Notes: generated by a model not told the origin, from the letters alone. Positions 7,714-12,877 are shown, counted from the stretch's first letter. The stretch is 12,877 nt of DNA from Candidatus Firestoneibacteriota bacterium (GCA_038042445.1 JBBTED010000118.1:1-12877), one strand, 5' to 3'. Program-made: numbers and translations.

Positions 7714-8004
7714 ATGGATGAAAAGAAAATTGTTTATACGCAACATTTGCAATTACGAATAAAATTTAGAGAGATTGATAACGAGTTACCATATAAAATA
7801 TATAGAACATCAACAGAAAAATATTTTGATTATAATACTAACTATTATATTGCGGTAAGTAATGTGCATTATAAAGGAAAAATGAGAGAAATGGCTATTG
7901 TTTATGAAGAAACTATAAATGAAATTAAAATTATTACAATGCATCCATTGAAATTATATGAGAAAATGAATAGAATTAATCGTGGGAGGTGGCGAAAAAT
8001 ATGA
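7714..8004 (+). CDS. Putative RelE/BrnT-fold toxin, DUF4258-like
   Basis: 96 aa, basic; N-terminal YTQH...R...REI and C-terminal AIVYE...IKIITMHP; ATGA overlap with the downstream DUF2283-like gene. Confidence 0.65.
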   Translation: MDEKKIVYTQHLQLRIKFREIDNELPYKIYRTSTEKYFDYNTNYYIAVSNVHYKGKMREMAIVYEETINEIKIITMHPLKLYEKMNRINRGRWRKI

Positions 8005-8222
8005 CAAAAAAAAATTTGGTAAATTATGATACTGATGCTGATGTGTTGTATATCGTTACTAAAAAAGGTCAGGAAGAGTCAGTATTAGAGATTGCACCTG
8101 GAATAAATGTAGAACTTGGTGAAAAAGGTGAAATTATTGGCATTGAAATATTACATGCTTCTAAAGTTTTTAAACCGATTGCTAAACCATTATATCACCA
8201 AATGGAACTTGTTAAAGCATAA
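8001..8222 (+). CDS. DUF2283-family protein, putative antitoxin
   Basis: YDTDADVLYI...EIAPGINVEL...GEIIGIEILHAS matches the DUF2283 pattern. ATG 8001 overlaps the upstream TGA; GGAGG at 7985-7989. The track's GTG at 7989 is less likely. Confidence 0.85.
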   Translation: MTKKNLVNYDTDADVLYIVTKKGQEESVLEIAPGINVELGEKGEIIGIEILHASKVFKPIAKPLYHQMELVKA

Positions 8223-8364
8223 AGTAAAAACAATATTAACAGTATTTAATGAACAAGTATTTCTGAGCAGATCACTCAAAAGATTGTCAAAACAATATTA
8301 GTATTGATAAAACAAAATCCTATCATAATGTGAAAAATACTTTAATTTTTTGCACTCTAAGTTT

Positions 8365-9243
8365 ATGAAAAGAATTTCAATAAAAAGTCTCCAAAAACAA
8401 GTTGCACAAGCGTCAGCTTTTTACGGAAAGCCAGATGTTTCACCTGATGAATTTTTTAGATATTCTACATCGCCTTTTTTGGCAAAAGCTCTTTTGAATA
8501 TTAGCTGCAGTGAAAAATTATTTTTTAAAATGAGTACTGATATTTCCTCGGCAGAAAAAGAATTGCATGGTATAGAGAAAATTGATATGGAAAATACCAT
8601 TCAAATCATTGACCAGAAAATAAAAAAATTTCGTAATAAAACAATTTTTTCTAGCGTAGTAATTTTATTACTTCTCTTACTGGTATTTTTGGCTAAATTT
8701 AGTATTGGGGATGTATTTGCAATTATTTTCTTTTCTTGTTTCATATTTGTGATAAACTTCGAAGCTATATCCAAAAAAATAACTGGTTTATCTATCTCAA
8801 ATTTAAATGAATATAAAAAACTTATTAGTTATTTAAGCAATCAATTCGTTAAATACAAGTATAATATTGAATATTGGAGCAATTTATCTTGGCAAAATTT
8901 TGAACGTGAAGTTACAAAAAGATTGCAGCGATTTGGTTATAATGCCATAAATACAAAATTGAGTGGTGATGAAGGTGTGGATATTGTAATCTGGGGCCAA
9001 AATAAAAAATTCATTATTCAATGCAAAGCAAGTAAAAATAAAATTGGTCCTGCATATATAAGAGATTTTATTGGAACTATAGGCATTCAAAATGCAGCAG
9101 GTGGTATGATTGTTTCACTAAATGGTTTTTCTAGTGGCTCACTAGAAGCATCCTCAAATTATTCTAATATCTATTTATTTTCTATTCAGGATTTTATCTT
9201 GTTGGATAGAGAAAAATTAGAAAGAATAATTGGTTATTGGTAA
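8365..9243 (+). CDS. Membrane-anchored Mrr-family (PD-(D/E)xK-like) restriction endonuclease domain protein
   Basis: C-terminal WQNFEREV...GY....T..SGDEGVDI...IIQCK...IGPAYIRDFIG matches the Mrr_cat pattern. Two central hydrophobic helices (TIFSSVVILLLLLLVFLA and VFAIIFFSCFIFVINF). ATG 8365 chosen over TTG 8350. Confidence 0.85.
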   Translation: MKRISIKSLQKQVAQASAFYGKPDVSPDEFFRYSTSPFLAKALLNISCSEKLFFKMSTDISSAEKELHGIEKIDMENTIQIIDQKIKKFRNKTIFSSVVILLLLLLVFLAKFSIGDVFAIIFFSCFIFVINFEAISKKITGLSISNLNEYKKLISYLSNQFVKYKYNIEYWSNLSWQNFEREVTKRLQRFGYNAINTKLSGDEGVDIVIWGQNKKFIIQCKASKNKIGPAYIRDFIGTIGIQNAAGGMIVSLNGFSSGSLEASSNYSNIYLFSIQDFILLDREKLERIIGYW

Positions 9244-9267
9244 AGATAATGAAAGGGAATGAAAATT

Positions 9268-9296
9268 TTGACTTTTACTTTTAAAAGATGTATAAT
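9268..9296 (+). promoter_or_regulatory. Near-consensus sigma70 promoter upstream of hicB, with a palindrome in the spacer
   Basis: TTGACT (9268-9273), 17 bp, TATAAT (9291-9296). CTTTTAAAAG palindrome at 9278-9287; SD GGAGGTG at 9311-9317. Confidence 0.75.
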
Positions 9297-9325
9297 TCAA
9301 TTGTTTACTTGGAGGTGAATGGTGA

Positions 9326-9493
9326 ATGTATAGAAAAAAAATAAAACACTATAATTTTATGGTTGTGATTGAGCAAGATGAAGATGGGTATTACGTAGCT
9401 ACTGTTCCAACTTTAAAAAGCTGTTATACTCAGGCTAAAACTCTTGATGAATTGTATCCAAGGATCAAAGAAGCTATTGAACTTTGTCTTTAA
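9326..9493 (+). pseudogene. hicB: HicB-family antitoxin, 55 aa, probably C-terminally truncated; no hicA partner
   Basis: Not in the ORF track. Manual translation MYRKKIKHYNFMVVIEQDEDGYYVATVPTLKSCYTQAKTLDELYPRIKEAIELCL* carries the HicB pattern (VIE.DEDG.Y.A.VP.L..C.TQ..T..E....I.EAI.L.L). It stops where a Glu (GAA) usually follows. Confidence 0.8.
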
Positions 9494-10560: not shown

Positions 10561-11733
10561 ATGGAAAATTCTAATAAAATAAAAAGATTACCGCCTTATA
10601 CACTTGGTGAAGTTAGAAAATCAATGATACAGGAGCGGACAAAAGGCATAGATGTAATTGATCTTGGAATGGGAAATCCTGATAGACCTACTCCACAGCA
10701 TATAGTAAATAAATTGTGTGAAGTAGTTCAGGATTCAAAAACACATAGGTATTCAGTTTCTCGTGGTATTTTTAATGCTCGCAAAGCAATTGTACACAGA
10801 TATAAAGAAGATTTTGATGTTGATTTAGATCCTGAAACTGAGACTATTACAGTAATTGGAGCAAAAGAAGGGATATCACATTTAGCATTAGCTCTTCTTG
10901 ATGAAGGTGATGTAGCACTTGTTCCAAATCCTACTTATCCTATACATTTATATAGTGTTGTAATTGCAGGCGGAAATTTAGTTAGTATACCTATTGAATC
11001 TTCAAATAATTTTGTTATTGATTTAAAAAAAATAAGAGAACAAAAATTTTTCCCAAAACCAAAACTTCTTATAATAAGTTATCCTCATAATCCAACTACT
11101 GCTTGTGTGGACTTGAAATTTTTTGAAGAAGTTGTAGCTTTTGCAAAAGAACAAGATATGATGGTTATTCATGATTTTGCTTATAAAGATTTGACTTATG
11201 ATGGATACAAGGCGCCTTCTTTTTTACAGGCAAAGGGTGCGAAAGATGTAGGTGTAGAATTATTCTCACTTACAAAATCTTATAATATGGCAGGTTGGAG
11301 AATGGCTTTTGCACTTGGCAACTCAAAAATTATTGCAAATCTTGCAAAAATAAAAAGTTATATGGATTATGGAATTTTTACTCCAATTCAGGTTGCAGCA
11401 ATTACTGCGTTAAAAAGTGATCAATCTTGTGTAAAAAACATTGTTGAGACTTATAGAAAGCGAAGGGATGTTCTTGTAGAAGGGCTTAACAAATTAGGTT
11501 GGCAAATAGAAAAACCAAAAGCTACAATGTTTGTTTGGGCGCAAATTCCATCAAAATTCAAAGATATGAAGTCTCTAGATTTTTCATTAATGTTACTAAA
11601 AGAAGCAGCAGTTACAACATCTCCAGGTATAGGATTTGGTGAATATGGAGAAGGATATGTTCGATTTGCATTAGTGGAAAATGAAGAAAGAATAAAGCAG
11701 GCACTACGTAGTTTGAAAAAAATATTTTTATAA
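10561..11733 (+). CDS. alaC: Class I/II PLP aminotransferase, AlaC (YfdZ)-like glutamate-pyruvate aminotransferase (related to LL-DAP aminotransferases)
   Basis: IKRLPPY, DLGMGNPD.PTPQHIVNKLC, THRYSVSRGI, GAKEGISHL, PNPTYPIH..VIAG, YPHNPT, HDFAY, SLTKSYNMAGWR, KIKSYMDYG, SPGIGFGEYGEGYVRFAL. These closely parallel E. coli AlaC as I recall it. Confidence 0.85.
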   Translation: MENSNKIKRLPPYTLGEVRKSMIQERTKGIDVIDLGMGNPDRPTPQHIVNKLCEVVQDSKTHRYSVSRGIFNARKAIVHRYKEDFDVDLDPETETITVIGAKEGISHLALALLDEGDVALVPNPTYPIHLYSVVIAGGNLVSIPIESSNNFVIDLKKIREQKFFPKPKLLIISYPHNPTTACVDLKFFEEVVAFAKEQDMMVIHDFAYKDLTYDGYKAPSFLQAKGAKDVGVELFSLTKSYNMAGWRMAFALGNSKIIANLAKIKSYMDYGIFTPIQVAAITALKSDQSCVKNIVETYRKRRDVLVEGLNKLGWQIEKPKATMFVWAQIPSKFKDMKSLDFSLMLLKEAAVTTSPGIGFGEYGEGYVRFALVENEERIKQALRSLKKIFL

Positions 11734-11768
11734 ATGAGTTAAGAATATATGATGTTTAGCTATATTAT

Positions 11769-12091
11769 ATGTATAAAAAAATATCATAGAAACAACTAAA
11801 TCAATATCTGGTAAAATAATAAATCTTTCCTTAAAGCAATGGTTTCATATTGTAGAATCACATGATTATATGGCTGGAAATATAAGTAATATATTAGAGA
11901 CAGTTAATTGTCCTGATTGTATTGTTGATGGGTTCAAAGGTGAATTAATTGCTTTAAAATTTTACGCTAATACTAATTTAGGTGAAAAATATTGTGTGGT
12001 TGTTTATAAAGAGAATAGAGATAGTTTTATTATTACAGCTTTTTTTACATCAAAGCCAGAAACTATTAAAGAAGGCGGAGTATGGTGGAAA
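11769..12091 (+). pseudogene. RelE/PBECR-like (DUF4258-related) nuclease toxin domain with out-of-frame start and no stop codon of its own
   Basis: The frame from 11777 reads KNIIETTKSISGKIINLSLKQWFHIVESHDYM...ILETVNCPD.IVDG.KGELIA..FY..T.LGEKYCVVVYKE...FIITAFFT...WWK. ATG 11769 is one base out of frame across an A7 run (11775-11781). The first in-frame ATG (11870) lies after the W-x-H-I motif. Confidence 0.6.
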
Positions 12092-12877
12092 ATGATAGGA
12101 TCACTACCAGGAGTAACAGTGCCAGCGAGAACAACGAGAGCATTTACATATAATTATACGATAAATATATCATCAACGATAATCATGGGATTATTTGGAG
12201 AAGGGAAAATACCGGATCCGTATGTAGGGATGCTAAAAGGAGCGGATATAATAGCAGAGCGTGGAATATGGGTAGTGCCAGCAGGAGTAAGTGTAGGAAT
12301 AGGAGTAGATAAAGGGATATATAAGAGAGGGGAAAATGCACAGGTTAGTGTAAGTGTGAAGAATATGCAGAATATAAGTTACAATGCGAATGCGAGTGTG
12401 AAGGTGTATGACCCAATAAATGCGTTGGTGTTCAACCAGAGTTTCAGTTTAGTATTAGTGGCAAATGAAACAAAAGTACAAGGGATAACAATACCAATAA
12501 CAGAGGGATTGAGAGATGGGACGTATTTAATATCAGTGGAAGTGGATAAAGAAGGAGAGAAGATAGGGACGAATACAGGAGTAATTGAAGTGCAGAATAT
12601 AAGGCTGGGAATAGTAGCGAATTTGCCGAGCGGAATTAATGCGAGTGGAAATACAAATATATCATTTGCAGTAACAAATAGCGGAATAATAGATGTGGCA
12701 AATGCGCCATTGAGAATAATGTTAAAGGATATGAATAATGCAGTAGTGTGGCAGGAGACAAAGCAATTCAATATAGGAGTAGGAGCAAATACGAGTGTTC
12801 AATTTACAATACCGTCATTTAATTTAAGTTTTGGAAAATACACAATGTCGTATAACATAGAATATGGAGCAAAAACA
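12092..12877 (+). CDS. Ig-like beta-sandwich repeat region (CARDB/MG2-like) of a probable large surface protein; partial, runs off the window, in frame with the upstream toxin-like domain
   Basis: Stop-free frame continuing from 11777 to the window end. Translation includes VDKGIYKRGENAQVSVSVKN...VKVYDP...LVFNQS...DGTYLISVEV and NISFAVTNSG...VVWQET...VQFTIP...GKYTMSYNI, with alternating beta-strand patterns rich in V/I/G/N/T/S. Confidence 0.7.
   Translation, partial: MIGSLPGVTVPARTTRAFTYNYTINISSTIIMGLFGEGKIPDPYVGMLKGADIIAERGIWVVPAGVSVGIGVDKGIYKRGENAQVSVSVKNMQNISYNANASVKVYDPINALVFNQSFSLVLVANETKVQGITIPITEGLRDGTYLISVEVDKEGEKIGTNTGVIEVQNIRLGIVANLPSGINASGNTNISFAVTNSGIIDVANAPLRIMLKDMNNAVVWQETKQFNIGVGANTSVQFTIPSFNLSFGKYTMSYNIEYGAKT

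Follow-up and report, generated by a model that had tools for sequence, protein, structure and literature searches.

The DNA analysed here, referred to as the window, is an entire contig (C118) of 12,877 bases from the genome assembly of a Candidatus Firestoneibacteriota bacterium (G000; 181 contigs, 2.81 Mb, 32% GC). A Pfam scan finds genes of ordinary biosynthesis in its left 11.7 kb, among them those for two aminotransferases, SerA, an HMGL-like synthase, subunits of the aconitase type, a dehydrogenase of the isopropylmalate type and a pfkB kinase; a small conflict-gene islet is set among them, and the last aminotransferase gene has its stop codon at 11733. From position 11777, directly after a TAA at 11774–11776, a single frame of 367 codons runs without a stop until it is cut by the end of the contig. 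With a random-codon stop rate of approximately 7.6% at 32% GC, simple arithmetic puts the chance of 367 open codons at about 1e-13. The frame is missing from the default ORF track because it is listed only when open ends are allowed, in which case it appears as 11870..12877, open at the 3′ end and beginning at the first in-frame ATG, GTG or TTG. Frame and ORF listings thus agree with an earlier, sequence-only reading of this DNA, which had reported the frame, its length and its absence from the track, and had described it as a small RNase toxin fused to Ig-like surface-protein repeats. A promoter and terminator scan found seven promoter-like sites, where 4.8 ± 2.1 are expected by chance, and no terminators. 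The features of the locus, together with parts of related genes elsewhere in the genome, are listed in Table 1.

Table 1. Features of the open frame and of giant-gene parts on other contigs; positions are those of the window unless another contig is named.
Feature	Position	Strand	Remarks
Would-be start ATG, equivalent to that of the family	11769..11771	+	One base out of frame with the toxin body; stop after 6 codons
A7 homopolymer	11775..11781	+	Frame break between ATG 11769 and the toxin body
Toxin-derived part, predicted PBECR2-like BECR-fold RNase domain	11777..12068	+	Codons 1–98; His24, His29 and Thr87 kept
First in-frame canonical start	11870..11872	+	Invariant Met32 of the family
T7 run	12037..12043	+	One base shorter in the 183.8-kb contig
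Toxin/giant-gene junction	12068..12069	+	From merging left flanks and from DNA and protein alignments
Internal fragment of giant Ig-repeat surface-protein gene	12069..12877	+	P0277 residues 645–914
C-terminal half (4 strands) of beta-sandwich domain	12071..12280	+	From the P0277-segment model
TGA TAG in the +1 frame	12093..12098	+	Stop of frameshifted P0003; the open frame itself has no stop
First difference cluster against giant-gene copy	12132..12154	+	TTRAFTYNY vs STRAFIFSY
Complete beta-sandwich domain, weak MG2 match	12305..12571	+	Residues 177–265 of 367; strands 125–226 in the model
Last difference cluster against giant-gene copy	12731..12748	+	Nearly identical downstream
Giant-gene head, signal peptide and Amidase_3 (L017)	C12 7782-9572
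Giant-gene head, Peptidase_M23 (L018)	C115 2-1816	-
Giant-gene tail (L019)	C115 8729-11434		902 codons
Giant-gene tail (L020)	C33 42640-45345		902 codons

The conflict-gene islet lies between the dehydrogenase and pfkB kinase genes. At 7714–8222 a 96-aa ORF without a Pfam match overlaps a DUF2283 gene (E 3e-16), and at 8350–9493 a restriction endonuclease of the Mrr_cat type (297 aa) is accompanied by a HicB-like ORF of 55 aa, next to which no obvious HicA is seen. The DUF2283 product shares 39% identity over 56 residues with the partner protein of one of the toxin relatives described below. We considered whether the toxin part of the open frame is kin to the pair at 7714–8222 and rejected this, as the two give no alignment and the hhalign probability is 0.2. 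A 186-aa ORF at 1411–1971, between the class-V aminotransferase gene and SerA, has no Pfam match at E ≤ 0.1.

The toxin-like motifs quoted in the sequence-only reading are present in the N-terminal part of the frame. Codons 1–105 match the PBECR2 profile (PF18810) weakly, with an E-value of 0.002 and a score of 18.7 bits that falls short of the 27.1-bit gathering cut-off. A search for the wider family returned 165 of 168 candidates of 57–184 aa at E ≤ 0.001; the closest relatives are 70–80% identical to the window copy, stand-alone and mostly 109 aa long, as had been expected of such toxins, and the named sources are uncultured bacteria labelled WOR-3, Zixibacteria and similar. PBECR2 is matched at E ≤ 0.01 by 39 of 46 aligned family members, the best at 1.2e-6. 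All eight invariant positions of the family are kept in the window copy, and its toxin body contains neither an internal stop nor a frameshift. A toxin model built from the family alignment (pLDDT 92.5) has a helix at residues 19–28 followed by strands, with His24 in this helix and Thr87 in the strand at 84–91; both residues are invariant in the 46 aligned sequences, and their placement fits the active-site pattern given for PBECR domains in PMC5512222.

The structural matches of this model are nearly all RNase toxins of the BECR/RelE fold. In VIA-align the top match is the CdiA-CT toxin 7m5f_C (Z 8.1, rmsd 2.9, 87 aligned), and a Salmonella TA toxin (Z 7.0), BrnT (Z 6.6), colicin D (Z 6.2) and RelE (Z 4.8) are also matched; the best Foldseek match has an E-value of 5e-3, and the family profile gives no matches to PDB sequences at E ≤ 1. 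A search for a RelE/BECR-type fold had been set beforehand as the point on which a toxin interpretation could fail, and with these fold matches, the family search and the PBECR2 matches the interpretation stands. We therefore regard the N-terminal part as a PBECR2-like domain of BECR/RelE fold, derived from a toxin, with a predicted RNase activity.

The remainder of the frame has quite different relatives. With the Ig part as query, an exhaustive search yielded 220 representatives at E ≤ 0.001, almost all of them 1000–4800 aa in length, with the matches lying in the interior (about residues 130–2000) of proteins of up to 4806 aa; an earlier word-based search for longer relatives had scored none. 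When the whole 367-residue frame is used as a query, alignments with giant proteins begin at residues 95–100, and the EGG-WW motif right at the joint is conserved in those proteins; this stretch therefore belongs to the giant gene and not to the toxin. The Pfam matches of the Ig part are weak and of MG2 and CARDB type, the MG2 match at E 8e-6 falling below its cut-off.

That this part would match the interior of a giant protein is confirmed by alignment with P0277 (2667 aa). The fragment, followed beyond the window, corresponds to residues 645–976 of P0277, with 286 of 332 residues identical (86%), 46 differences, no gap and no stop. Identity is unevenly distributed: the first three blocks of 30 residues have 25–30 identities, those in the centre 21–23, and the last three full blocks 29–30. 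In a comparison of 44 columns with 133 distant homologues, the fragment is closer to the family in 23 and P0277 in 20, with one tied, and the gap-free and stop-free divergence of the fragment fits a maintained sequence as well as it fits a recent copy. Past the window, a 104.8-kb contig shows that the ORF runs for 74 more codons, to residue 976 and then through 13 unrelated codons to a stop; this right-hand end of the fragment, beyond 12877, is known as protein only.

A model of the P0277 segment (pLDDT 94.3) consists of two beta-sandwich domains, which resemble tandem beta-barrel and FnIII pairs. The strands of the first domain lie at 8–49, before the junction residue (52/53), and at 59–121, after it; the joint falls between the strands at 38–49 and 59–69, and the window copy opens with half a domain. 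In the intact gene the first strands of this split domain precede the junction, and the window does not contain them. The fragment is also devoid of a signal peptide, of an Amidase_3 or Peptidase_M23 head and of a tail, and so it has neither the N-terminal signal peptide and head nor the run of whole domains by which a giant protein of this kind would be recognised.

The junction at 12068|12069 is genuine DNA. The window ORF belongs to a 90%-identity cluster of four members, P0273, P0275, P0003 and P0274, of which P0273 is the window ORF itself, called from the ATG at 11870. P0275 (410 aa), which is encoded on a contig of 104,802 bases, is identical to the window ORF over all 336 residues and continues for 74 residues to a stop. 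P0003 and P0274 are encoded on a contig of 183,848 bases and represent the window DNA with frame switches at homopolymers; P0003 reads this DNA in three frames, with one switch at the A7 run at 11775–11781 and a shorter T7 run that puts it in the +1 frame, in which it crosses the joint up to 12092 and ends at the TGA at 12093.

Further evidence comes from public groundwater runs of other studies (2019–2025; designated X), the contigs of which were aligned to the window. One contig of run X3 spans 11484–12152 with no differences, and runs of three studies contain 31-letter words that cross the joint. Contigs of X1 and X4 extend from the toxin to 12098, which is 30 letters past the joint and one short of our bridging rule, and a second contig with a different left flank joins at 12069, forming a branch in the k=31 graph. 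The 30-letter loose end preceding 12069 in these runs translates to IYLGAHESGE, and P0277 has exactly this sequence right before EGGVWWKM. As P0277 is encoded on the same 104,802-base contig as P0275, one genome has both a full giant gene and a separate fragment behind the toxin remnant; Logan contig depths are unable to rank the copies. The spanning of the joint that the sequence-only reading had proposed as a check is thus obtained in part with assembled contigs: X3 bridges it and X1 and X4 reach 12098, while run X7 does not cover it. The exact 42-base pattern at 12069–12110 has no matches in metagenome contigs or in genome contigs, a search from which records of this genome and of near ones may be excluded. 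We also considered a deletion polymorphism at a single locus, which is unlikely because the 2544-letter contig of X1 has no branch leading to the natural end of the toxin, although rare variants can hide.

The step in base composition that a junction here implies is real, with GC rising from 0.27 in the N-terminal part to 0.375 in the Ig part, where 0.66 of the bases are purines; only one of 6865 windows of the genome matches the GC and purine values of the Ig part jointly. This unusual composition arises from codon choice. Third positions in 12092–12877 are 73.7% purine, a higher fraction than in any of the genome's 2099 gene pieces; none of the alanine, glycine, threonine or proline codons in the Ig part ends in T or C, and 26 of the 29 isoleucine codons are ATA. 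In other giant-gene pieces of the genome the third-position purine fraction is 0.64–0.65, and in a homologue from another genome it is 0.51. We considered and rejected a foreign origin of the Ig part, since purine-rich third positions are common to the giant-gene pieces of this genome and the physical reality of the joint is established.

A search of G000 guided by giant homologues located two 5′ and two 3′ parts of giant genes (Table 1). Their interiors are unassembled, which is the reason that the window contig stops at 12877. Both head contigs end on the same stretch of about 50 bases, some 32 codons short of the position that corresponds to 12069, and the two tails of 902 codons share 88% DNA identity. 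The converging heads and similar tails suggest that heads are swapped and sequences exchanged among giant genes, and the locus exposes a small giant-gene family with exchangeable cell-wall-hydrolase heads and near-identical interiors. Searches of G000 for copies of either half of the open frame returned only the self-match, and no 21-letter word is common to other contigs; the alternative left flank has no match in this 90% complete genome when three mismatches are allowed, and a search of metagenome contigs for the locus of the Ig part gave 251 pattern matches, none of which was confirmed.

Alignment with its relatives shows that the toxin gene is damaged at both ends. The relatives begin with a methionine and four further residues, followed by IIETTKS. 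In the window, eight A's rather than seven at 11775–11781 would give a family-like start from the ATG at 11769, and there is no in-frame ATG, GTG or TTG between the stop at 11774 and the ATG at 11870. Because the A run is one base short and cuts off the start, no full toxin domain is expected by ordinary initiation, and in the toxin model a product started at Met32 is without the first two strands and without the helix bearing His24 and His29. The A7 run is not a slip of the window's own assembly, because the contigs of X1, X3 and X4 are ungapped there and the gene calls in two NCBI records (P0273 and P0275) start at Met32; in run X7, two bases are left out at 11716 and at 11775. It could be that a −1 slip on the A7 run, or initiation at an ATA or ATC codon, still yields some full-length product. 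The undamaged state of the toxin body indicates either that the damage is recent or that the body is still under selection.

At the other end, the relatives terminate in ..ETI(K/R)K(R/G)GVIWQK, and the window reads ..ETIKEGGVWWK and continues, leaving its toxin without the last nine or so codons, the stop and the partner gene. Ten close toxin loci were found, of which three cut loci were dropped; all seven that were counted, for which downstream DNA is available, have an ORF of 74–81 aa overlapping the last codons of the toxin (toxin ORF 106–112 aa). The partner ORFs at three of these seven loci were scanned in Pfam and all three are DUF2283, and a similar partner ORF, judged by eye, is present at three of three distant toxin loci. 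The gene order suggests that DUF2283 would neutralise the toxin. The alignment and the loci of the relatives therefore bear out the earlier observation that the frame runs on where a toxin stop and an antitoxin gene are expected; neither a complete toxin ORF with its start nor an adjacent antitoxin gene is found in the window copy.

We conclude that the open frame is probably a non-functional chimera, a pseudogene left behind by recombination, and that, striking as it is, it most likely represents not a new toxin architecture but a broken toxin gene joined to a partial copy of a giant gene. Over approximately 35 bases at the joint, the DNA of the giant gene resembles that of the natural toxin end found in relatives. 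Recombination at this short chance likeness, between a toxin end reading ..K(K/R)GGV-W-K and the ..EGGVWWK.. of the giant gene, would have joined the toxin gene at 12068|12069 to an internal giant-gene piece of about 1 kb, and the fusion would be in frame since the two similar stretches have the same codon phase. Lost in the same event would have been the stop codon of the toxin, the nine or so codons before it and the partner DUF2283 gene. Unless it is disabled, a toxin that has lost its partner would be expected to be lethal, and the broken start is in keeping with this.

Several findings lead us to read the frame as a pseudogene: the full toxin domain has no start codon, an export signal is absent, the joint leaves half a domain, a search among longer proteins found no fused relatives, and no Ig-repeat ORF accompanies the toxin in seven relatives. 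The sequence-only reading had raised the question of whether related genomes carry the same fusion, and none was found outside the ORF's own cluster, which provides the single match among 153 longer candidates (weak evidence); in the approximately 1 kb downstream of the toxin, an Ig-repeat ORF is absent from all seven relatives. Of the three explanations offered by that reading, a recombination junction is the appropriate one, with the toxin end and partner lost and the interior of a giant gene joined on. The locus provides a natural example of in-frame fusion at a short chance likeness, and of a toxin gene disarmed upon loss of its partner gene.

A second and unlikely reading is that the fragment is a silent donor cassette: a 5′-truncated and promoterless piece kept as a variant store, the centre of which is exchanged with expressed giant genes through its conserved ends, with the toxin remnant as a mere landing place. 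Partial and silent copies of surface-protein genes that serve in gene conversion are known in pilS of Neisseria and MgPar of Mycoplasma genitalium, and the likeness to these systems includes a truncated copy, conserved ends, a variable centre and full-length copies nearby. The identity of the fragment to P0277 is a mosaic of this kind, with near-identical ends and a diverged centre, and in 332 residues there is no gap or stop and no excess deviation from the family. About 100 nt upstream of the junction point, the sequences of at least two giant genes become identical, and this convergence of heads, together with the 88% identity of the tails, makes exchange among giant-gene copies plausible; moreover, in two assemblies a full gene lies on the same contig as the fragment.

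However, only a single cassette was seen, fused to a remnant of an unrelated gene, and a recombinant expressed allele with the fragment's centre was not found. The mosaic could equally have arisen if a different paralogue was copied, or if the full gene converted the ends of the fragment, and a contig of X1 that mixes both versions may be an artefact of bubble popping. We think it improbable that giant genes are varied by segmental gene conversion from this fragment, maintained as a donor cassette within a dead toxin-antitoxin locus. If true, it would point to surface variation in an uncultured groundwater phylum, in a programmed form that is not known from such candidate phyla or from giant genes.

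Still more doubtful is a functional chimera, a cytoplasmic protein of 410–441 aa in which Ig-like domains follow a BECR RNase domain, whole or reduced to its C-terminal two thirds, and which is expressed from the ATG at 11870, or from that at 11769 if the A7 run undergoes a −1 slip. In such a protein the Ig part could serve in cis as a regulator or sensor replacing the lost antitoxin. In favour of this, three assemblies have the frame uninterrupted across both parts, His24 and Thr87, residues of catalytic type, are retained, and the A7 run sits where a −1 slip would restore a family-like N-terminus. Against this, the full domain has no canonical start and the product from Met32 is without the His-bearing helix, the Ig part opens with half a domain, the promoter-like sites are not above the chance level, and no fused counterpart was found among the 153 longer candidates outside the ORF's own cluster or in the seven toxin relatives. 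The sensor-effector suggested by the sequence-only reading is likewise unsupported, in view of the absence of an in-frame start, an Ig part that begins in mid-domain, a stop 74 codons past the window, and the failure to find a fused form outside that cluster (weak evidence). Misassembly, in which toxin and giant gene would have been joined through a short shared word, has in its favour a contig end in a repeat region, the k=31 graph branch at 12069 in X1 and X4 and the composition shift at the joint, but is very improbable because the same joint is present on the 104,802-base and 183,848-base contigs and in the bridging X3 contig, words crossing it occur in the runs of three studies, and the high-purine codon habit is common to the genome's other giant-gene pieces.

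With the most likely interpretation being a broken toxin gene joined to part of a giant gene, each half of the frame can be compared with known systems. The toxin family shares with PBECR2 (PF18810; Iyer et al. 2017, PMC5512222) a fold in which a helix is followed by strands, and most of its aligned members match that profile. The PBECR2 domains treated in PMC5512222 are of phage type, whereas the family studied here is a stand-alone chromosomal gene accompanied by DUF2283 and not a phage polyvalent protein; the window copy differs further in scoring below the profile cut-off and in having lost its start, end and partner. The relatives resemble type II toxin-antitoxin systems (RelE, BrnT and the colicin-like DUF4258) in their two-gene layout with overlapping stop and start, from which the window copy departs in having no partner gene. 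Polymorphic toxins such as CdiA and Rhs also combine a BECR-fold RNase domain with a long repeat protein in one frame, but there the toxin is the C-terminal tip, and in the window it is N-terminal, with no delivery domain and no immunity gene. The Ig part has MG2/CARDB-type repeats like those of giant Ig-repeat surface proteins with cell-wall-hydrolase heads, for example P0277 (2667 aa) and P0124 (3067 aa), but consists of about 330 interior residues alone; a preprint (10.1101/2023.11.21.568195) provides a comparison for giant surface proteins of this type.

Two further observations concern the assemblies. The X3 contig that bridges the junction ends at 12152, and window-like cover is missing for about 130 bases thereafter, in part of 12153–12281. 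The last eight letters of this contig look like the start of an Illumina adapter. The 183,848-base contig has homopolymers that are one base shorter than those of the window (at 11775–11781, 12037–12043 and approximately 12216–12241), and shortened runs of this type split both the locus and the giant gene into short ORFs (P0003, P0274, P0123 and P0278–P0280), a pattern that looks like long-read homopolymer error.
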